NCBI GenBank assembly: GCA_014740375.1
Contig: GCA_014740375.1_3041.1
DNA length: 64,000 bases
DNA from: a phage
Strand: one strand, 5' to 3'
The position numbers and the translations under genes were made by a program. Below the pieces are notes generated by a model. It saw only the letters and a list, made by a program, of their open reading frames with translations. It was not told the origin of the DNA and did not search any database. Positions 3,913 to 26,120 of the stretch are shown here, in pieces; the first letter of the stretch is position 1, and each line of letters starts with the position of its first letter.

Positions 3913-5337
3913 TTATGGATAGGTATAGATGATACCAGTTTCTAAAGCAGTTTTATGAATGATGTATCCATTACGTGATTCTTGAACATCAACTTCTGGA
4001 TAGTCTTTCATCATCTTCTGAAGAGTGTAACGATGCAGGTAGTATTTACTATCTGGATCTTCAGTTTTCCAATCTTTACCTTCTTCGGTCATTTTTTGGA
4101 TTTCATCCATAACCCACCAACCGCACCAGATATAAGCCGAAGTACGATGTGGAAGAGGATGAACATAAGGCAATTCACCTTCTGGTTCTGGAGCAACTTT
4201 ATCAGTTACCTGAACTTGACCTTCTGCTGTGATAGTTTTGCTATCATAATCAGTAGCAGTAACAGTTGCAGTAACTTCAATAGTTTGACTTCCAATAGAT
4301 GATGTATCAACGGTGTATACATTAGTTGACCCTTCTACTGGAGAAGAATCTTTCTTCCATGAATATTCAATTTGAGCTTCTTCTGGAGCATCAGTAACAT
4401 TAGCAGTAAATGTAGCCGAAGCATCTTGCTGAACGTTAATAGAAGGAGGAGTCAATGTAACCTGTGGATTCATTGTCTTCTTATTAACTGTTAATGATAC
4501 TTCATTAGAAGTAACTTCCTTTTCATTGTAATTTTCTGCAGTTACTTGCGCTACACACTTAACTGTTTTAGCTCCAACTGTGGTAGGAGTATAGTTAAAT
4601 GTAGAGTTAGTTTCTTCACCAATTTGAGAATCATCTACATACCATTGATATGTAGCAGACGCTCCATCGGGTTGAGAAACTAAGGCAGCAGTAAATTGAA
4701 CTGGGGTTCCAATAACTCCTGCTGGAGGACTATCAGGAGTTACTGTCAAGGTAGTTGTCTGCGTCTTTTTATTAACAGTCAGTGACACTTCATTAGAAGT
4801 AACTTCCTTTGCATCATAATCTGTCGCGGTTACTTGAGCTACACACTTAATTGTTTTAACTCCGCTTGCGTCAGGAGTGTAATTGAATGTAGTGCCAGTT
4901 GCTTCGCCCACAGGAGAACCGTCAACGTACCATTGATATGTAGCGTTTGCACCTGATGGCTGTGAAGCTAAGGCAGCAGTAAATTCAATTGGAGCTCCAA
5001 TCACTCCAGCATCAGGGCTACCAGGAGTTACAGCTAAGGTAGTTGTCTGTGTCTTATTTTGAACTGTGATAGTTGTCGTAGCTTCTGCTGTTTCAGGTTC
5101 AGATTCAGATTCTGGAACTGTATTTGTTGCAACGACTTTAATAGTCTTTTGACCGGCAGGTCCTTTTAATACATAATCAAAAGTTGCCGCCGATCCTTCT
5201 TGCGGAGCATTATCTACACTCCAAGCATAGGTAATAGTTCCACCTTCAGTTTGACCACTGGGTGCAGCAGTAAACTGCTTAGTTTCATCAATAACTCCAG
5301 TAGGTGTTTTAGGAGTTATATCAACTGTAAAAGTCAT
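3913..5337 (-). CDS. hoc: Hoc (highly immunogenic outer capsid protein) with four Ig-like domains
   Basis: 474 aa; Ig-like repeats plus C-terminal capsid-binding region; two adjacent domains are near-identical; T4 Hoc is 376 aa. Confidence 0.85.
   Translation of the reverse strand: MTFTVDITPKTPTGVIDETKQFTAAPSGQTEGGTITYAWSVDNAPQEGSAATFDYVLKGPAGQKTIKVVATNTVPESESEPETAEATTTITVQNKTQTTTLAVTPGSPDAGVIGAPIEFTAALASQPSGANATYQWYVDGSPVGEATGTTFNYTPDASGVKTIKCVAQVTATDYDAKEVTSNEVSLTVNKKTQTTTLTVTPDSPPAGVIGTPVQFTAALVSQPDGASATYQWYVDDSQIGEETNSTFNYTPTTVGAKTVKCVAQVTAENYNEKEVTSNEVSLTVNKKTMNPQVTLTPPSINVQQDASATFTANVTDAPEEAQIEYSWKKDSSPVEGSTNVYTVDTSSIGSQTIEVTATVTATDYDSKTITAEGQVQVTDKVAPEPEGELPYVHPLPHRTSAYIWCGWWVMDEIQKMTEEGKDWKTEDPDSKYYLHRYTLQKMMKDYPEVDVQESRNGYIIHKTALETGIIYTYP
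4477..5058 (-). repeat. Tandem direct repeat (2 x 291 bp) encoding duplicated Ig-like domain of Hoc
   Basis: Hoc residues ~94-190 and ~191-287 both run TQTTTL(A/T)VTP ... EVTSNEVSLTVNKK with ~75-80 percent identity. Confidence 0.8.
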
Positions 5338-5346
5338 AAGTTATCC

Positions 5347-6027
5347 TTATTTTAATGTTACGAAAGAAGAATTGCGTGTTTCACGAATTAGAACTGATCC
5401 GTCACGATTAATGTAGTAAATTAAGCTAAATAAAGTTTGGTGTGCCGACGCATGTTCAAAACTAGTTGGGTGAGATTTCCAATCCGGAGTTTCAGCAATC
5501 CACTGGTAAATCCACCAAGGAACAGTGCAGAATCCTGGATTTTTTCCAATCAGCTGAAGATTCGGACTAAAGTTTTCCGGAAGAGTAAATACAGACGGCT
5601 TTTCAGATTCAATAATCTCAGCTACAGCCTGCTCGAATTTTTCTTCAACAAAAGGAGTATCTTCAATCAAAACATCGGTATTTTCAGTAATTTTATCCGT
5701 TTCTACTACTTCAATTTTAATGTCAGATTTAACCGGAGAATCAATCAGAAGTGCTGCTTCTGGATTGACTTCTTCATCGTCATATTTTAATCCGTCTGCA
5801 GCATCAGCAGCATCAATTAAGTCTTTAATAGATAACCCATCAGTCTCTGGCATAGGTTCACTAGCGAGCTTCTGGAGGGCTTCTTCAATATCATTAACGA
5901 TATTATCAAAAGATTTATTCTTTTTGACTTTTATACCAAACTGTTCAGCATATTCAGCTAATTTAGCTTTAGCTTCTTTATTATCATCAAGAGCCTTCAG
6001 CTCTGCAATATAATCTTTATCTATCAT
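5347..6027 (-). CDS. inh: Inhibitor of prohead protease (Inh)
   Basis: 226 aa, same length and position as T4 inh (downstream of hoc). Confidence 0.7.
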   Translation of the reverse strand: MIDKDYIAELKALDDNKEAKAKLAEYAEQFGIKVKKNKSFDNIVNDIEEALQKLASEPMPETDGLSIKDLIDAADAADGLKYDDEEVNPEAALLIDSPVKSDIKIEVVETDKITENTDVLIEDTPFVEEKFEQAVAEIIESEKPSVFTLPENFSPNLQLIGKNPGFCTVPWWIYQWIAETPDWKSHPTSFEHASAHQTLFSLIYYINRDGSVLIRETRNSSFVTLK

Positions 6028-6076
6028 AATATTTCCTCAGTATAAATATAGATATATTTATTACTCGGAAAATAGT

Positions 6077-6694
6077 ATGTACCACTTTGTATATGAAACA
6101 ACAAATCTAATAAATGGTAAAAAGTATATAGGAAAACACTCTACTGATGACTTGAATGACGGTTACCTTGGTTCCGGTAAGGCAATTCAGCAGGCTATAA
6201 AGAAATATGGTGAAAACAATTTCTCTAGAACAATACTAAAAGAGTTTAAAACTTCCGAAGAAGCGTACATGTATGAAGAAGAAATTATAACTCCTGAACT
6301 AATAAAAAGCAAAAATTATTATAATATGAAACCTGGTGGAATTGGTGGAATTGTTATGACTACAGAGGTTATAGCAAAGATGAAAGAATCTTCCGCTAAA
6401 AGATTTGAAAACTCACCAGGCACGGTATTAGGTAAAACTTGTTACACTAATGGAACTAAAAATATTTTTATTAAACCTGGAGAACTTGTTCCAGAAGGAT
6501 TTGTAAAAGGGATGGTTCATCCTAATAGAAAGTCCAGAAAAGGATGTAAAGTCAAACCGACTACCACAGGAACTTTTTGGGTCAATAATGGCGCAATAAA
6601 TAAATTAATACAACCAGACGGTATTATTCCCGACGGATTTATTAAAGGTCGTCTCATGAAAAGAGATTCTAAAGGCAAATTTAGTAAGGCATAA
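6077..6694 (+). CDS. segE: GIY-YIG family Seg homing endonuclease (205 aa)
   Basis: N-terminal GIY-YIG module (HFVYETTNLINGKKYIGKH ... YNMKPGG); located between inh and uvsW where T4 segE lies; symbol by position. Confidence 0.65.
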   Translation: MYHFVYETTNLINGKKYIGKHSTDDLNDGYLGSGKAIQQAIKKYGENNFSRTILKEFKTSEEAYMYEEEIITPELIKSKNYYNMKPGGIGGIVMTTEVIAKMKESSAKRFENSPGTVLGKTCYTNGTKNIFIKPGELVPEGFVKGMVHPNRKSRKGCKVKPTTTGTFWVNNGAINKLIQPDGIIPDGFIKGRLMKRDSKGKFSKA

Positions 6695-6696
6695 TT

Positions 6697-8205
6697 ATGG
6701 ATATTAAAGTACATTTTCACGACTTCAGTCATGTACGCATCGATTGTGAAGAGAGCACGTTCCACGAATTAAGAGATTTCTTTTCGTTTGAAGCTGATGG
6801 GTATAGATTTAACCCTCGCTTCAGATATGGCAACTGGGATGGACGAATCCGTCTTTTAGATTATAATCGTCTTCTTCCATTCGGCTTAGTCGGGCAAATT
6901 AAAAAGTTCTGCGATAACTTTGGCTATAAAGCCTGGATTGACCCGCAGATTAACGAAAAAGAAGAATTATCAAGAAAAGATTTTGATGAATGGCTTTCTA
7001 AATTAGAAATCTATTCAGGAAATAAAAGAATTGAACCACACTGGTATCAAAAAGATGCAGTGTTCGAAGGATTAGTTAATCGTCGTAGAATTCTTAATCT
7101 TCCAACATCCGCAGGTAAATCTTTAATTCAAGCTTTGCTTGCTCGGTATTATTTGGAAAATTATGAAGGCAAAATTCTTATCATTGTTCCAACAACTGCT
7201 CTGACAACTCAGATGGCTGATGACTTTGTTGACTATCGTTTATTCAGTCATGCAATGATAAAGAAAATCGGCGGTGGAGCATCAAAAGATGATAAATATA
7301 AAAATGATGCACCAGTTGTTGTTGGTACATGGCAAACTGTAGTAAAACAACCGAAAGAATGGTTCTCACAGTTTGGAATGATGATGAATGATGAATGTCA
7401 TCTTGCCACAGGAAAAAGTATTTCATCTATCATATCAGGTTTAAATAACTGTATGTTTAAATTTGGTTTGTCTGGTTCATTACGTGATGGCAAAGCCAAT
7501 ATAATGCAGTATGTTGGAATGTTTGGTGAAATATTTAAGCCAGTAACGACCTCTAAATTAATGGAAGATGGACAAGTAACTGAGTTAAAAATTAATAGTA
7601 TTTTTCTTCGCTATCCCGATGAGTTCACTACTAAATTAAAGGGAAAAACTTACCAAGAAGAAATAAAAATTATTACTGGACTCAGTAAAAGAAATAAATG
7701 GATCGCTAAATTAGCTATTAAGCTTGCACAAAAAGATGAAAACGCTTTTGTCATGTTTAAACACGTATCGCACGGTAAAGCTATTTTCGATTTAATTAAA
7801 AATGAATACGATAAAGTTTATTACGTATCAGGGGAAGTTGATACCGAAACCCGCAACGTAATGAAAACCTTAGCTGAAAACGGTAAAGGAATAATTATAG
7901 TAGCTAGTTATGGTGTATTTTCTACCGGTATTTCAGTTAAAAATCTGCATCACGTTGTTTTAGCACACGGTGTTAAATCTAAAATTATTGTATTGCAAAC
8001 AATAGGTCGCGTATTACGTAAGCATGGTTCCAAAACAATCGCAACAGTCTGGGACCTCATCGATGATTGTGGTGTTAAGCCAAAATCTGCTAATACGAAA
8101 AAGAAATACGTTCATTTGAACTATCTTTTAAAACACGGCATTGATCGTATTCAGCGCTACGCAGATGAAAAATTTAATTACGTAATGAAAACAGTTAATT
8201 TATAA
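6697..8205 (+). CDS. uvsW: UvsW DNA helicase
   Basis: 502 aa; helicase motifs (PTSAGKS, DECH); T4 position. Confidence 0.92.
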   Translation: MDIKVHFHDFSHVRIDCEESTFHELRDFFSFEADGYRFNPRFRYGNWDGRIRLLDYNRLLPFGLVGQIKKFCDNFGYKAWIDPQINEKEELSRKDFDEWLSKLEIYSGNKRIEPHWYQKDAVFEGLVNRRRILNLPTSAGKSLIQALLARYYLENYEGKILIIVPTTALTTQMADDFVDYRLFSHAMIKKIGGGASKDDKYKNDAPVVVGTWQTVVKQPKEWFSQFGMMMNDECHLATGKSISSIISGLNNCMFKFGLSGSLRDGKANIMQYVGMFGEIFKPVTTSKLMEDGQVTELKINSIFLRYPDEFTTKLKGKTYQEEIKIITGLSKRNKWIAKLAIKLAQKDENAFVMFKHVSHGKAIFDLIKNEYDKVYYVSGEVDTETRNVMKTLAENGKGIIIVASYGVFSTGISVKNLHHVVLAHGVKSKIIVLQTIGRVLRKHGSKTIATVWDLIDDCGVKPKSANTKKKYVHLNYLLKHGIDRIQRYADEKFNYVMKTVNL

Positions 8206-8219
8206 GGGCTTCGGCCCTT
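8204..8219 (+). promoter_or_regulatory. Intercistronic GC hairpin (UUCG loop) between uvsW and uvsW.1
   Basis: AAGGGC-TTCG-GCCCTT immediately before GGAG Shine-Dalgarno of next ORF. Confidence 0.5.
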
Positions 8220-8230
8220 TGGAGAAAAAG

Positions 8231-8461
8231 ATGTTACTAGAATTTAAACAATTTCTTTATGAAGCTTCTATTGATGAATTTATGGGTAAAATTGCCTCTT
8301 GTCAAACAATAGAAGGTCTAGAAGAACTTGAAGCTTATTATAAGAAAAGAGTTAAAGAAACTGAATTAAAAGATACTGATGACATCTCTGTGAGAGATGC
8401 TTTGGCAGGAAAAAGAGCTGAATTAGAAGATTCAGACGATGAAGTAGAAGAAAGCTTTTAA
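8231..8461 (+). CDS. Hypothetical acidic protein (uvsW.1 position)
   Basis: 76 aa from ATG with GGAG Shine-Dalgarno; track ORF starts earlier at a TTG. Confidence 0.55.
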   Translation: MLLEFKQFLYEASIDEFMGKIASCQTIEGLEELEAYYKKRVKETELKDTDDISVRDALAGKRAELEDSDDEVEESF

Positions 8462-8465
8462 ATTA

Positions 8466-8493
8466 AAAAAGGCCCAACCGAAAAGGAAGGGCC
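8466..8493 (-). terminator. Terminator-like hairpin at end of uvsY operon
   Basis: GGCCC ... GGGCC stem with large loop, followed by T run on minus strand; weak. Confidence 0.4.
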
Positions 8494-8516
8494 AAAACTA
8501 TAGACTAAAGGTCACA

Positions 8517-8684
8517 CTATAGCAAAAGTTGTGTTTCATTTAATTGTTCTTCCGAACTTTCTGAAACTGGTAGTTCTTTAATGTAATTATAACAAGGCCC
8601 AGGATGTACAGGACCTTTGTCTGTTTCAACAACCAATGCAGAATCGATTGGAGTTTTACAGACAACGCAAATCTTATCTGACAT
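8517..8684 (-). CDS. Small Cys-rich (zinc-ribbon-like) protein, 55 aa (uvsY.-2 position)
   Basis: ATG preceded by GAGGAG; translation MSDKICVVCKTPIDS ... GPCYNY; below the 60-aa ORF track cutoff. Confidence 0.5.
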   Translation of the reverse strand: MSDKICVVCKTPIDSALVVETDKGPVHPGPCYNYIKELPVSESSEEQLNETQLLL

Positions 8685-8712
8685 GATTGTCTCCTCTAAA
8701 TTATATATCTAT

Positions 8713-8937
8713 TTATATAACTCTCATATGCATATCAATGCCCATATCTTTAGAATAAAAATATTCATCAAGATATCCGGCAAATTTTCCTTTAACATAA
8801 AGTACATCTTCACCGCATGGATGGTCGGCCAGGATACGAATATCCTGACGCTTGAGATTATACTTTTTCATTAAGAATTGAATTTCCGTTTCGAATTCTT
8901 CTTCATAATTAAAAGCATCATCAATGCTATATTTCAT
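8713..8937 (-). CDS. Hypothetical protein (uvsY.-1 position)
   Basis: 74-aa ORF immediately downstream of uvsY. Confidence 0.55.
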   Translation of the reverse strand: MKYSIDDAFNYEEEFETEIQFLMKKYNLKRQDIRILADHPCGEDVLYVKGKFAGYLDEYFYSKDMGIDMHMRVI

Positions 8938-9350
8938 TATTTTCCAGCCTCAAATGCTCGCATGTCTTGAATATGCTTAATAGCAAATCCGCGTGATTTG
9001 ATAGCATCAAGAGCTCCGCTACAGAAATCCAATAAAATTCCCCAATATTGCAATGAAGTATCAACTTTTAAAACATCCTTATCAGCTGATAGAACTGTTT
9101 TCATTTCTGATTTCTCGTAACGATCCATACTAAATTCATCACCATCTCCTCGTCCCGAGTAGTAGTCTAATTTAGCTTTAAGAGCAACTTTTTTCTGTGC
9201 ATCAATTCTAAGCATTTCCTTTTTAATACTTGAATGCTTATTGAGCCATTTACTATATAACATCACATTATTAGCTGCTTCATACTGTAATTTAGTCGAA
9301 TCTATAAACACATCTTTCTTCAATTCTTCTTGAAGATCTTCTAATCTCAT
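8937..9350 (-). CDS. uvsY: UvsY recombination mediator
   Basis: 137 aa, same length and position as T4 UvsY. Confidence 0.92.
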   Translation of the reverse strand: MRLEDLQEELKKDVFIDSTKLQYEAANNVMLYSKWLNKHSSIKKEMLRIDAQKKVALKAKLDYYSGRGDGDEFSMDRYEKSEMKTVLSADKDVLKVDTSLQYWGILLDFCSGALDAIKSRGFAIKHIQDMRAFEAGK

Positions 9351-21319: not shown

Positions 21320-21506
21320 AATAATCTATTGGTAAGAGAGTACGATATATTTCAAACTTTGGACCTTTTTCATAGGCATCAAATGTTTCTGTGAATTTAT
21401 TATAAGCATATGCATCTATAAATTCAATCATAATTTGTGATACAGAAGTAGAAACATCTCCACCTTCTTTTTGAGCCACGACAATTGTTTCTAAGTAAGC
21501 TTTCAT
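21318..21506 (-). CDS. Hypothetical small protein
   Basis: 62-aa ORF; start overlaps gene 30 stop (ATGA). Confidence 0.45.
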   Translation of the reverse strand: MKAYLETIVVAQKEGGDVSTSVSQIMIEFIDAYAYNKFTETFDAYEKGPKFEIYRTLLPIDY

Positions 21507-22966
21507 AGACCAGTTACCTCATGAAAATCACCAAATACATCCTCGAATGTATTAGCTTTAGTTTTATCTTCACGTAAACGAATCGCAATCGGAAGAAATA
21601 ATTTAACGTAATCAGTGCGTCCATCAGATTTTAACCAACCGTTGCATTCGCACTCTAGAATTTTTCCAATATAATAATTTTGGTTTTCCATGATGCGAGT
21701 ACGGTCAAGTTCATGCGATTTTACACCGGCTTTATCTTTTAAGCCTGAACCAGCATTTACTTTAATTTTTCCACACTCTGATTCAAGAATAAATCCACCT
21801 GCTTTAGTAGGGTCTTTACGGTGAGGATAAATTCCTACAATTTTTAAATCAACATCAATTACTTCTTTAAATTTATAGAGATTTTTTGAACGAGCATTTT
21901 CCCACAATCCATCGGTATTTTTGAGAATAATACCTTCAAGACCTTGGTCAATATACTTTTTATAAATTACCTTAGCTTCATCTAGGTTATTTACTACTTG
22001 GTTTTCAATTAAAATTACTTTATCATATCCTGATGTCATTTGTTCTAGTTTAGAAAAACGTACATCATATTTTAAACGAAACGCAGGAAGACCGTATATT
22101 TCTACCAACGGGACATAATCCCAGACCTGAAACTTCATGCATTGAGCTTCTTTTTCAGAAATGGTTCCTTTTAAGGATTTATTGGCGATTCCATTAGAAG
22201 TAGTACGAGATTCCGCTACTTCGGCGAATTCTTTAGCTTTACTAATTTCAGGATAAGCATCAAAAAGAAAATCTAGGCCTTCTGGTTCCTTTTTAACTTG
22301 CTCATGGTATACCAATTCGCCATCAATTAACACACCTTCTGGATGAATCTGGCGGGCTTCAGCAGTCATTTTGATTAACTCTTCCTTAAGAAGATCTAAT
22401 CCTAGATATTCATTACCAGCTCGTGATAAAAGACGAACATCATCTAATTCATCACCTCGGACTTCAGCAAAACACCGAGCTCCATCTGCTTTTAACTGTG
22501 CAAAGGCTGGAAACTTGATATTCTTATTAATGCCTTTTTCATCATAAGAACTTGCCAGCATTTGAGGTTGTTCAGGAATTAAACCTGGCCAAACTTTGTT
22601 TGCAATAGATACTGAAGCACCGCATTCAAGGTCTCGCATCATCACTCGACGCAAAACTTCAACATCATCTTTTTTACCGTCAGTAATATATCCAGTTAAT
22701 TCCTCAATTGCCGCATTTCCAGTCAATTTCCGAGTAGCTAACGTGAATTCAATGAAGTCAAGCATATCGGTAAGAGTCAACATTCCAAAACTCTGGGTAG
22801 CAATACCCGGTTTAGGCCATTTCTTGATATAATACTGTAACCCACGAGAATAAGTCAGACGATATACTCGTTTAAGCAATTCATTATCTTTATTCTTTTC
22901 AAGAATTGCTTGCTTCTGCTTAGTTGAACCAATAGATGCTATTTCGTTCAGAATTTTAAGAATCAT
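21503..22966 (-). CDS. 30: ATP-dependent DNA ligase
   Basis: 487 aa; adenylation motif KADGAR; T4 length. Confidence 0.95.
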   Translation of the reverse strand: MILKILNEIASIGSTKQKQAILEKNKDNELLKRVYRLTYSRGLQYYIKKWPKPGIATQSFGMLTLTDMLDFIEFTLATRKLTGNAAIEELTGYITDGKKDDVEVLRRVMMRDLECGASVSIANKVWPGLIPEQPQMLASSYDEKGINKNIKFPAFAQLKADGARCFAEVRGDELDDVRLLSRAGNEYLGLDLLKEELIKMTAEARQIHPEGVLIDGELVYHEQVKKEPEGLDFLFDAYPEISKAKEFAEVAESRTTSNGIANKSLKGTISEKEAQCMKFQVWDYVPLVEIYGLPAFRLKYDVRFSKLEQMTSGYDKVILIENQVVNNLDEAKVIYKKYIDQGLEGIILKNTDGLWENARSKNLYKFKEVIDVDLKIVGIYPHRKDPTKAGGFILESECGKIKVNAGSGLKDKAGVKSHELDRTRIMENQNYYIGKILECECNGWLKSDGRTDYVKLFLPIAIRLREDKTKANTFEDVFGDFHEVTGL

Positions 22967-23232
22967 TGTTCATCCTTTAGAGTTTGGTTTACAGCTCTAT
23001 TATAAATCAATTCATCATTAAGCTCAGTCAAAGACCTGTGGTACGTGGTTCTAACTTTATTTCCTTGCATCCAGTGCTTGACGTAAATGAAACCTTGCTC
23101 TACACATTTTTTAAAAATTCGTTCGTCTTTTTGAGCTCGGAATTCTGGATTGCATCTAAAAAATTGATTTACGTGACCGTAATCACGTGTAGTATTACCT
23201 TCATTTTCATAAATAGTGTGAACGACAAACAT
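22963..23232 (-). CDS. Hypothetical protein (30.1 position)
   Basis: 89-aa ORF translationally coupled to gene 30. Confidence 0.55.
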   Translation of the reverse strand: MFVVHTIYENEGNTTRDYGHVNQFFRCNPEFRAQKDERIFKKCVEQGFIYVKHWMQGNKVRTTYHRSLTELNDELIYNRAVNQTLKDEQ

Positions 23233-24068
23233 TAGAATGCTCCTTGGAAAATATTATCACCACTAGTAGGTCTATTATACAAATACTCTATGCCACCGGG
23301 TTTAATATAGTTCCATGTCTGAAACGGATGCGTCTGATATGGATGATATGGATTATAAGGATTAAACCCAGGAGTTCTCCAGGTAGTGTTCCAAGGAAAA
23401 GAATCGTTTTTGATCATCTTCTCAATTACATCTTTTATAGCTTTTTCACGATCAAAACTTTCTTTAATTTCCTTCGATGGAAAAAGCTTATTCTCGACAT
23501 CATTCCATGTATAAACTCGCTGTGCAGTTTTTGGAATACTGTCACGCTCTCCTCGAGCCATCCAATAAACAGGAACATTTAATATTTCACTCGCATGATC
23601 GCAATGGTGAGCGAGATCGTCAATGTAACAAATTACGTTATATTTCTCTTTTGCCTTTTTGAACAACTCTTCTTTTGAAGAATCATGACCACACATCATT
23701 ACTTCTGAGAAGGCACCAGGAAAAAGAGCATTCAAATTAAATTGACGATTCAACAGAGCGTCAATAGAATCACCCAATGCTGTAACAGCTACAAAATTAT
23801 AATCTTCTTTTAATTTGTTAATTACACACAGGGCATCTTTATATGGAGACAAGTAACGAATAAAATCTGAACGATTGTATTTTTCAATTAACTTGACGCC
23901 AAGTTCTTCATCACAATTAAAGAGTTTACCAGGAGAAATAAATTTCTCATCTTGGATCATTTTTAAAATATGTTCTAACGGAAGATTATATTTCTGAGCA
24001 AAATAAGGAAGGCCTGATTGCCAGCTTAAACATACTCCATCAATATCAGTTAAAATAGTAGGCTTCAT
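23232..24068 (-). CDS. HAD-superfamily phosphatase-like protein with C-terminal Pro/aromatic-rich tail (30.2 position)
   Basis: HAD motif I LTDIDGV near N-terminus; DD motif (YIDDLAHH); C-terminal PGFNPYNPYHPYQTHPF. Confidence 0.6.
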   Translation of the reverse strand: MKPTILTDIDGVCLSWQSGLPYFAQKYNLPLEHILKMIQDEKFISPGKLFNCDEELGVKLIEKYNRSDFIRYLSPYKDALCVINKLKEDYNFVAVTALGDSIDALLNRQFNLNALFPGAFSEVMMCGHDSSKEELFKKAKEKYNVICYIDDLAHHCDHASEILNVPVYWMARGERDSIPKTAQRVYTWNDVENKLFPSKEIKESFDREKAIKDVIEKMIKNDSFPWNTTWRTPGFNPYNPYHPYQTHPFQTWNYIKPGGIEYLYNRPTSGDNIFQGAF

Positions 24069-24529
24069 AGAGAGTCTCTTAATAGGTTTAACACATCAAT
24101 AAATTCAGCTTCGGTTAGTATTGTATCATCTTTTGTTAGACCACTAGCCATGCTGTGCTTCAAAACTTTTCCTTTCGAGGCTTGTAATGCATCACGAAAG
24201 CCCTTGTTTTGGATCGCTGCTTCAAAATATGCATTTGTGTATAATTCTTTCCACGCTGGAGAGTATCTTGAAAACGGAGTTCCAAGCCAGAAGAGGGTCC
24301 CACGGTCCTGAGCTCTAGCATAAGACCTTCCAGCTTGTTGGGCGGCAAGCCCGGATAACCCAAATACACGACGTTGTTGTTCAACATTTTTCACCTTGCA
24401 TCCTTGGAGGAATCCTTCAAGACCTCCAAATTGAATACCATCCATGACGAAAGGCCATTGGGCGAAATTACTTAATGCACATGATGGCCACCTAAAATTG
24501 CTTCTAATCTCTAACTCAGACATTTTCAA
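24065..24529 (-). CDS. NADAR (YbiA-like) domain protein (30.3 position)
   Basis: SNFAQWPFVMDGIQFGGLEGFLQGCK resembles the YbiA/NADAR signature; family assignment from memory. Confidence 0.6.
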   Translation of the reverse strand: MKMSELEIRSNFRWPSCALSNFAQWPFVMDGIQFGGLEGFLQGCKVKNVEQQRRVFGLSGLAAQQAGRSYARAQDRGTLFWLGTPFSRYSPAWKELYTNAYFEAAIQNKGFRDALQASKGKVLKHSMASGLTKDDTILTEAEFIDVLNLLRDSL

Positions 24530-24722
24530 TGCTTATAATCTCAACATCAGCCCAATGACCATAGCAAGGAAGACGAAATTCAACTGGCCAGTTAGGATCC
24601 TTTTCTAATATAATAGACTCAACTCGTGGTTCTTCATGTTCATCAGTATATGGATTTTTATCTGTTACTTTATATGTGACCTTAATGTACTGAATTCCAA
24701 AAATCTTATTAATTATATTCAT
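24516..24722 (-). CDS. Hypothetical protein
   Basis: 68-aa ORF in 30.x early operon. Confidence 0.5.
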   Translation of the reverse strand: MNIINKIFGIQYIKVTYKVTDKNPYTDEHEEPRVESIILEKDPNWPVEFRLPCYGHWADVEIISIENV

Positions 24723-24916
24723 ACTAATTCCTTTAATCCGTAAATAGGAGATAATTCATCACCCATACGAAGGTCTTCATTTCCATCTACCCAGGAAACA
24801 ATATAAGCCTCTTTTATTTGAACACCACTCCATTTAAATGGAGGTAGAACCTTAGAAATTAATCCAGGTATACCAACTCCCTTTAATTCAACAGTTTGAC
24901 CTAAAAAGAATTTCAT
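24719..24916 (-). CDS. Hypothetical protein
   Basis: 65-aa ORF, overlapping stop-start. Confidence 0.5.
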   Translation of the reverse strand: MKFFLGQTVELKGVGIPGLISKVLPPFKWSGVQIKEAYIVSWVDGNEDLRMGDELSPIYGLKELV

Positions 24917-25203
24917 TAGAACCTCATCTGAAAGCCGTGTGATTTAACATTACCACCGCCAATATCAGAAATGTTAATTTCACTCGCAATTGAAGGGTCA
25001 ATGTCAATTTCACGATTGAGTTTAGTGATAGCTAAAGTATCGCGCCCATTTACAGTACGAAACTCTAAAGGACAAACCACATCAACGTAGTTTTTAATCG
25101 ATTCACTGGTAGGCTGCAAATGAGCAGGAAGGTCTTTAGGCGCCTTTGAGAAAACAACTTCGCAGAAGTTTTTACGGGTATCAAAATAAGTAGTCATAAA
25201 CAT
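24916..25203 (-). CDS. Hypothetical protein
   Basis: 95 aa from ATG with GAGGA Shine-Dalgarno; track start at 25239 would put the start codon inside the hairpin. Confidence 0.5.
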   Translation of the reverse strand: MFMTTYFDTRKNFCEVVFSKAPKDLPAHLQPTSESIKNYVDVVCPLEFRTVNGRDTLAITKLNREIDIDPSIASEINISDIGGGNVKSHGFQMRF

Positions 25204-25220
25204 AATATTTTCCTCAGTAA

Positions 25221-25234
25221 GGGGCCGAAGCCCC
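25221..25234 (-). promoter_or_regulatory. Intercistronic GC hairpin (UUCG-type)
   Basis: GGGGC-CGAA-GCCCC between stop of upstream ORF and Shine-Dalgarno of next. Confidence 0.45.
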
Positions 25235-25244
25235 CTCATTTATT

Positions 25245-25678: not shown

Positions 25679-26011
25679 TTATTTTACTACTTTCCAGTGC
25701 TTCATGTCAAGTTTACCGACTTTTTTCATCTTCTCAATTAAGCGTTCTGCACGTTGGCGAGCTGTAACATAATGCCATTCACCTAATTCATTTTGTTCAA
25801 TTTTTCCAACGATTACTGTATTCAATTCATAAATCCAACCAGTAAAGAAATTATGAACTTGAATTGTAAAGGTGAAATCTGTTCCCATACCTTCTGTTGT
25901 TTCTACTTCAATAATATCACCTTCAACTGCCATTAAGAACCACATAGTTTCATCATATTTACCATTGAAGCATTTAGTTTTAACTGCAGCGTTCAGATTA
26001 ATCGTTTTCAT
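25679..26011 (-). CDS. Hypothetical protein
   Basis: 110-aa ORF with AAGGAG Shine-Dalgarno. Confidence 0.55.
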   Translation of the reverse strand: MKTINLNAAVKTKCFNGKYDETMWFLMAVEGDIIEVETTEGMGTDFTFTIQVHNFFTGWIYELNTVIVGKIEQNELGEWHYVTARQRAERLIEKMKKVGKLDMKHWKVVK

Positions 26012-26068: not shown

Positions 26069-26096
26069 AACTTTATGCAATCTTTGGAAAATAAAA

Positions 26097-26116
26097 AGGA
26101 CTCCCGAAGGAGTCCT
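26097..26116 (-). terminator. Rho-independent terminator
   Basis: AGGACTCC-CGAA-GGAGTCCT followed by TTTTATTTT on minus strand. Confidence 0.6.
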
Positions 26117-26120
26117 CAAC

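Follow-up and report, generated by a model that had tools for sequence, protein, structure and literature searches.

Do two overlapping genes of a T4-type phage, one encoding a protein that resembles the NADAR enzymes and the other a protein that resembles the phosphatases of the HAD superfamily, act as a functional pair? The question arises from contig GCA_014740375.1_3041.1 of GenBank assembly GCA_014740375.1, a stretch of 64,000 nucleotides that we analyzed as a whole and refer to as the window. An original prediction, made from the letters of the sequence, had pointed to two open reading frames (ORFs), at 23232-24068 (278 amino acids) and 24065-24529 (154 amino acids, with a TTG start), and had suggested that this pair might manage ADP-ribose or NAD-derived metabolites, or counter ADP-ribosylating defense toxins of the host. 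Both ORFs are present at these positions, and so are the motifs on which the suggestion was built: LTDIDGV at residues 6-12 and DD at residues 150-151 of the longer ORF, and NFAQWPF ... GGLEGFLQGCK in the shorter one.

The window belongs to a T4-type phage (Tequatrovirus). Its ORFs match the gene order of T4, the segment from 22900 to 24800 shares 98% identity with Tequatroviruses, Kha5h and RB3 among them, and by sequence comparison we identify the two ORFs as T4 genes 30.3 and 30.2. We consider it very probable that they are separately acting T4-type genes, namely, adfN (30.3) and a gene for a HAD-superfamily aspartyl-phosphatase whose substrate is most likely a nucleoside monophosphate (30.2). 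Both folds, the motifs, the orthology with T4, and the gene context were examined directly in the current analysis; the activity and role of AdfN, the dispensability of 30.2, and the finding that AdfN does not need it are taken from the literature. For the substrate of the 30.2 protein (gp30.2) and the role of its tail, we infer what we can from relatives and from the model.

24065-24523, minus strand: gene 30.3, identified as adfN, 152 amino acids (Pfam PF08010, T4 identity, NADAR fold)
23232-24068, minus strand: gene 30.2, putative HAD-superfamily phosphatase with a C-terminal tail, 278 amino acids (motifs, model, transitive profile matches)

Gene 30.3 and AdfN

Gene 30.3 of T4 was renamed adfN by Johannesman et al. 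(2025; PMC11825919), who found that T4 AdfN strips ADP-ribose from DarT1-modified DNA, that the E36A variant is catalytically inactive and K43A rescues only partly, and that the RB69 allele, which is 15 residues shorter, is inactive. A 2024 report in Toxins, "Specificity of DNA ADP-Ribosylation Reversal by NADARs" (PMC11125620), showed that NADARs cleave ADP-ribosyl-guanine and not ADP-ribosyl-thymidine, all of those tested acting on ADP-ribosyl-guanine in DNA, and that the residue in the last strand is His in phage NADARs, Glu in YbiA, and Asp in DarT1-linked NADARs. (In its methods, that report gives residues 1-208 for the T4 gp30.3 construct, more than the 152 amino acids that the T4 gene encodes.)

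The protein encoded in the window aligns with T4 gp30.3 from end to end, with 149 of 152 residues identical (98%), and matches the Pfam family Phage_30_3 (PF08010) with an E value of 4.5e-70. The two proteins share their length, their genomic position, E36, K43, and H123, and an intact C-terminal helix that the inactive RB69 allele lacks; they differ by V53I, T82V, and M125I only, none of which hits a catalytic position. The translation start is most likely the ATG at 24523, giving 152 amino acids, rather than the TTG at 24529 (154 amino acids), because T4 annotates 30.3 in this way (459 nucleotides) and because the published catalytic residues then fall at E36 and K43. Conservation was read from an alignment of 54 homologues, which gave the following codons.

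24416-24418, minus strand: predicted catalytic Glu36 of AdfN, invariant in the 54 homologues
24395-24397, minus strand: predicted catalytic Lys43 of AdfN, nearly invariant in the 54 homologues
24155-24157, minus strand: last-strand His123, a mark of the phage (gp30.3) NADAR clade, invariant in the 54 homologues

An AlphaFold model of the protein, with a mean predicted local distance difference test score (pLDDT) of 93.5, includes a predicted helix at residues 138-151. When the model was compared with the PDB by Foldseek, the top three matches were YbiA (2b3w; query TM-score, 0.68), the Phytophthora NADAR in complex with ADP-ribose (8bau), and the DarG1-type NADAR of Geobacter (8bat), all at a probability of at least 0.99, and every remaining PDB match lay at a probability of 0.06 or less. 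Profile searches gave a divided answer: the protein of the window matched PF08010 only, with no direct match to the Pfam NADAR family (PF08719), but 17 of the 54 family members also match PF08719 (best E, 1.5e-7). A profile of the gp30.3 family searched against the PDB returned YbiA as its sole match (E, 0.012). With the DarG1-type NADARs and Escherichia coli YbiA, AdfN shares the fold, the Glu/Lys catalytic pair, and the published chemistry, i.e., hydrolysis of ADP-ribose off guanine. Unlike these proteins, it has no N-terminal extension and no partner DarT toxin, and its last strand has His where theirs has Asp or Glu; nor, according to published work, is it able to substitute for DarG1 in uninfected cells.

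From its sequence and predicted fold, we identify 30.3 as adfN, encoding a NADAR-fold DNA ADP-ribosylglycohydrolase, the function being that reported for the 98%-identical T4 protein. The allele of this phage should be active, since it is full length and has E36, K43, and H123. In the mechanism that we favor, host DarT1 would place ADP-ribose on guanine of the phage DNA and so block replication, and AdfN would cleave this adduct and restore normal DNA by means of Glu36, Lys43, and the clade-specific His123. The suggestion that the 154-residue ORF is a NADAR enzyme is therefore borne out by the fold matches, the identity with T4 AdfN, and the catalytic residues. A role against ADP-ribosylating defense toxins of the host has been published for T4 gp30.3/AdfN acting against DarTG1 (PMC11825919, PMC11125620); this part of the original prediction was right, yet it had already been published.

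Gene 30.2 and the HAD phosphatases

The 30.2 protein is 97% identical to T4 gp30.2 and has some 1,450 relatives in phage genomes. Searched directly, neither Pfam, NCBIfam, and PADLOC nor the sequences of the PDB gave a significant match to gp30.2, and its assignment had to be built on an alignment together with a structure model and transitive matches. Together, these delimit a putative catalytic part with two motifs that can be placed on the DNA as follows.

23475-24068, minus strand: residues 1 to ~198 of gp30.2, predicted to form the HAD core and its C1 cap (motifs I to IV and model)
24039-24047, minus strand: HAD motif I, D8-x-D10 (D8-I-D10-G-V); D8 and D10 invariant in 49 homologues
23616-23621, minus strand: HAD motif IV, D150-D151; both at least 90% conserved in 49 homologues

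In the same 49 homologues, motif II corresponds to T96 (at least 90% conserved) and motif III to K132 (invariant). Among more distant relatives (21 to 42% identity), D8, D10, K132, and D151 do not vary, and T96 is kept in at least 90%; D150 is not listed as conserved in this set. The model is confident over residues 1-200, which form a Rossmannoid HAD core with a C1 cap, followed by a helix at 199-220 and then by a disordered tail; the helices of the cap are predicted at residues 16-66, and pLDDT is 86 to 94 over residues 11-70. Among HAD proteins, the DxD motif denotes a phosphatase and not a dehalogenase. The reading of the 278-residue ORF as a HAD phosphatase is thus upheld by four motifs and a confident fold, and the catalytic residues expected of both proteins are in place (E36 and K43 in 30.3; D8, D10, T96, K132, and D150-D151 in 30.2). 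As with the NADAR search, the profile evidence for a HAD family lies with the relatives, PF00702 being matched by 11 of 49 of them and TIGR01509 by 9 of 47, and not with the protein of the window, which has no direct match.

Several observations concern the kind of phosphatase. The NT5C family (PF06941), which is not matched directly by the protein of the window, is matched by 7 of the 49 close and 15 of the 47 distant relatives (best value, 4.2e-10), making it the commonest curated family among the sampled distant relatives, with HAD-IA next. A gp30.2 family profile found a single match in the PDB, the mouse cytosolic 5'(3')-deoxyribonucleotidase cdN (E, 0.054), in which Phe18 aligns with the nearly invariant W16 of gp30.2; we take Phe18 to be the residue that stacks on the base. 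It is likewise the 5'(3')-deoxyribonucleotidases cdN and mdN and their bacterial NT5C-like counterparts (PF06941; 2jao, 2i7d, 1mh9, and 3bwv) that give the best structural coverage of gp30.2, and they have in common with it the DxD core and, by the model of gp30.2, a four-helix C1 cap inserted after motif I. The likeness has its limits, however: identity to these enzymes is 14 to 20%, and gp30.2 has additional conserved elements (R108, N111, and a WQSGLPYF block), the added helix at 199-220, and a disordered tail of ~58 amino acids.

In HAD enzymes, a C1 cap usually goes with a small-molecule substrate. By its sequence and model, gp30.2 is probably a small-molecule phosphatase of the nucleoside-monophosphate type: the substrate would be small because the helical C1 cap covers the active site, and a nucleoside monophosphate is most likely because the nearest curated relatives are 5'(3')-deoxyribonucleotidases. 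The enzyme would be an Mg2+-dependent aspartyl-phosphatase with Asp8 as the nucleophile and Asp10 as the general acid/base. Our search of the literature found no biochemical data on deoxynucleoside monophosphatase activity of gp30.2, and none of the papers that it matched contains the term gp30.2.

An exhaustive profile search returned about 1,300 representative relatives of gp30.2, and the best 150 of these were mostly core-only proteins of about 200 amino acids. One metagenomic protein (P0014; 302 amino acids) joins the gp30.2 HAD core (residues 1 to ~205) in frame to a DUF3045/gp30.1 domain (residues 230-295). This is a weak hint of a link between 30.2 and 30.1, and it counts for little because it comes from a single contig of 1.4 kb.

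Do 30.3 and 30.2 act together?

The proposal that 30.3 and 30.2 make up a two-enzyme module, in which the NADAR enzyme frees ADP-ribose and the HAD phosphatase processes ADP-ribose or an NAD-derived product, has in its favor that the two genes overlap by 4 nucleotides (ATGA) and probably are cotranscribed. In addition, AdfN-T4 is fully working only during T-even infection, and a further phage protein has been proposed to be required for its full function; gp30.2 might be this missing factor. Both genes, moreover, are nearly universal in T4-like phages, with 1,453 phage records for 30.2 and 1,511 for 30.3 and with matching genus counts. Genome-level co-occurrence is uninformative in this case, because both genes are near-core and shared ancestry alone predicts that they will be found together.

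Gene context was read from 80 viral loci with gp30.2 and 80 loci with a gp30.3-type NADAR. The ligase gene lies within 700 nucleotides of gp30.2 in 71 of 80 loci, and a NADAR gene lies within 5 kb of gp30.2 in 37 of 80. Seen from the other side, gp30.2 is found within 8 kb of a gp30.3-type NADAR gene in just 20 of the 80 NADAR loci. In at least seven T4-like genomes (L151, L108, L117, L142, L150, L153, and L106), the NADAR gene is located some 60 kb from 30.2, amid small hypothetical genes. The gp30.3-type gene seems to have changed its place in the genome of T4-like phages. (On the Karamvirus-like contig L151, it occupies 8001-8450 within a region of small hypothetical genes at 5100-9100; the translations of some antisense ORFs lead us to suspect that tRNA genes are situated near the displaced NADAR genes.) In phage CC31, 30.2 adjoins the ligase gene with no 30.3 there, and its product still has the tail, which accordingly occurs in phages without an adjacent NADAR gene.

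Published genetics points in the same direction. HIDEN-SEQ, a transposon screen of T4, showed 30.2 to be nonessential, insertions being present at 72 of its 72 sites. When the host carried DarTG1, insertions in 30.3 were lost (log2 fold change, -7.25; adjusted P, ~0), whereas those in 30.2 were neutral (log2 fold change, -0.12; P, 0.61; 71 sites), and 30.1 and alt were neutral too. The sole other depleted gene was 30.4 (log2 fold change, -1.79; adjusted P, 0.014). Since the 3' end of 30.4 overlaps the start of 30.3, this depletion likely reflects a polar effect on 30.3, a role of 30.4 in its own right being possible. The screen also gave no phenotype for 30.2 in minimal medium, where insertions were neutral in M9 versus LB.

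Because insertions in 30.2 are neutral on the DarTG1 host, gp30.2 is not the missing T-even factor of AdfN-T4, a candidacy that gene context and published transposon sequencing both reject. The idea of a functional pair, in either of its forms, is not supported and is contradicted by context and genetics alike: adjacency is not kept beyond close relatives of T4, and loss of 30.2 carries no cost where loss of 30.3 is ruinous. We regard it as highly improbable. A tie to the ADP-ribosyltransferases of the phage itself, which had also been suggested, fares no better. Insertions in alt were neutral under DarTG1, and whereas the NADARs tested act on DNA, the described target of Alt, which it ADP-ribosylates, is the RNA polymerase of the host.

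The tail of gp30.2 and its possible roles

The C-terminal tail had been described as unusual and as rich in Pro, Tyr, and His. Its wealth of Pro and Tyr is evident, as is that of Asn, Thr, and Trp, but it contains two His residues only.

23235-23408, minus strand: predicted disordered tail of gp30.2, residues 221-278, rich in Pro, Tyr, Asn, Thr, and Trp (pLDDT, 37 to 55; missing from most homologues, which are ~200 amino acids long)
23277-23297, minus strand: tail motif G-G-I-E-Y-L-Y, residues 258-264 of gp30.2, conserved; candidate short linear interaction motif

A single element of this tail is conserved, G-x-G-I-E-Y-[LW]. At least four lineages of phages share it (Tequatrovirus, Mosigvirus-like, Karamvirus, and others), several T4-like ones in the form GTGIEY[LW]. 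It stands within a longer block, GxGIEY[LW]x[NR][QR]PT, and the sole helix predicted in it (residues 261-264) coincides with GGIEYLY. A disordered tail with one conserved motif probably tethers the enzyme to a partner protein. One speculative candidate is the T4 sliding clamp, gp45, which is bound through the motif [ST]LDFL[FYL] (SLDFLFG in gp43, TLDFLL in gp33, SLDFLY in gp55, and GLDFLFD in the ligase); in the ligase, an internal LDFLF adopts a helical form when bound to gp45 (Shi et al., 2018). The Kd of the ligase peptide is about 10 uM. The ligase of the window has LDFLF at residues 231-235, a sequence that occurs in a minority of the ligases among 80 related loci (T4-like and a few others).

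Were the tail to bind gp45 in the way that LDFLF of the ligase does, gp30.2 would be a replisome-associated phosphatase, stationed next to the ligase at nicks; there, it could take off a 3'-phosphate that acts as a block or dispose of a nucleotide product on the spot. The I-E-Y-L-Y of gp30.2 shares with the clamp motif its hydrophobic/acidic pattern, a disordered position near the C terminus, and a predicted helix, and the closeness of gp30.2 to the ligase gene noted above (at most 700 nucleotides in 71 of 80 loci) extends over diverse T4-like phages. Across the 127 ORFs of the window, the pattern [LIVM][DE][FY]L[FYL] has four matches, against 0.7 expected, and two of these (gp33 and the ligase) are established gp45-binding sites, the third being gp30.2. 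The fourth, an FLDFLLG end in an ORF at 6517-6765 (minus strand), is spurious, since this ORF is antisense to the homing-endonuclease gene segE (6077-6694, plus strand; uvsW follows at 6697-8205), and it takes some of the weight from the count. Further points tell against clamp binding. The gp30.2 sequence is not the canonical LDFL, I-E-Y in place of L-D-F being no more than a conservative variant; Karamvirus-type (CC31-type) phages, with GIEYLN, do without the third hydrophobic residue; and the conserved block runs on to a QPT that clamp motifs do not have. No correlation was found across the loci between the tail motif and LDFLF in the ligase. Most members of the gp30.2 family lack the tail altogether, the C1 cap by general knowledge of HAD enzymes usually signifies a small molecule and not a DNA end, and 30.2 is dispensable. 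The position beside the ligase gene is itself weak evidence, because T4-like phages strongly conserve gene order. Taken together, we think clamp binding improbable.

Alternatively, gp30.2 may be a counter-defense nucleotidase that depletes a precursor or signal of nucleotide type on which some immune system of the host, absent from laboratory strains, relies. The precedent is Dmp of phage T5, a deoxynucleoside 5'-monophosphatase, which is an early phage DxD phosphatase acting on nucleotides and blocks Kongming by removing dAMP. The NT5C-like HAD fold of gp30.2 would suit such a task; dispensability in K-12 is typical of conditional anti-defense genes, and 30.2 lies in an early-gene cluster with adfN and alt. 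Homology with Dmp was rejected, however: hhalign aligned motif I of the HAD fold only (probability, 1.5%), and Dmp itself has no Pfam family. The two also come from different phage families and genomic contexts, and Dmp is at most a functional analogue. No PADLOC or other anti-defense annotation was found for gp30.2, and the main text of the HIDEN-SEQ study does not flag 30.2 in any condition. Its near universality in T4-like phages, whose hosts are many, would be expected at least as much of a housekeeping gene of metabolism. We consider a counter-defense function unlikely, and a separately acting nucleoside-monophosphate phosphatase remains our preferred account of gp30.2.

Gene order and transcription

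On the minus strand, the genes run in the order cd, 31.2, 31.1, 31, rIII, 30.9 ... 30.4, 30.3, 30.2, 30.1, 30 (ligase), alt.1, and alt. The placement of the pair downstream of DNA ligase had thus been reversed: both genes are read from the minus strand, as are the ligase gene and alt, which puts the pair upstream of the ligase (30.4 > 30.3 > 30.2 > 30.1 > ligase). The neighboring features are as follows.

24516-24722, minus strand: gene 30.4 (PHROG 2042); its last 8 nucleotides overlap the start of 30.3
24160-24387, minus strand: ORF 30.3', 75 amino acids, out of frame within gene 30.3; T4 annotation, "internal translation, in a different reading frame"
22963-23232, minus strand: gene 30.1 (DUF3045; PF11243, E 2.9e-64), between 30.2 and the ligase gene and apparently translationally coupled
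21503-22966, minus strand: gene 30, ATP-dependent DNA ligase (PF01068, E 8.5e-33), downstream of 30.3 and 30.2

Consecutive genes overlap throughout this stretch (30.4/30.3, ATGTCTGA; 30.3/30.2, the ATGA already mentioned; 30.2/30.1, TAATG; 30.1/ligase, ATGA), and no terminator-like site was found on the minus strand between ~26.1 kb and alt. For these two reasons, cotranscription and translational coupling of 30.3 and 30.2 are plausible. A promoter scan contributed nothing to this part of the original prediction, its yield of 32 sites being no better than the 32.5 expected by chance. At 26096-26117 (minus strand) lies a strong hairpin of terminator-like form, GAGGACTCC-TTCG-GGAGTCCTT with a T run after it, and a sigma-70-like promoter with 11 of 12 matching positions (TTGACA-18-TAAAAT) is present at 25681-25710 (minus strand), upstream of 30.7. 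These two elements could bound a transcription unit that takes in 30.3, 30.2, and the ligase gene.

In the same cluster, the program-made ORF for 30.6 (24916-25239, minus strand) has 107 amino acids versus 96 (288 nucleotides) in the T4 annotation, and its PHROG match begins at residue 13. The real start is probably an internal ATG.

Significance

The action of phage NADARs against ADP-ribosylating defense was published in 2024-2025 as AdfN and has been confirmed by a genome-wide transposon screen, and to this the window adds one more, presumably active, allele. A useful negative result is that gp30.2 is not the partner of AdfN and therefore should not be annotated by association with it. What remains is a near-core gene of the T4 family that has a clear enzyme fold and is uncharacterized. 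The sole new lead to its biology is the GIEYL motif of the tail, with its resemblance to the motif that binds the T4 sliding clamp. If this resemblance were to prove real, a clamp-tethered gp30.2 would be a new accessory activity of the T4 replisome at the fork, and tethering to the clamp would explain why 30.2 has stayed beside the ligase gene across T4-like phages.

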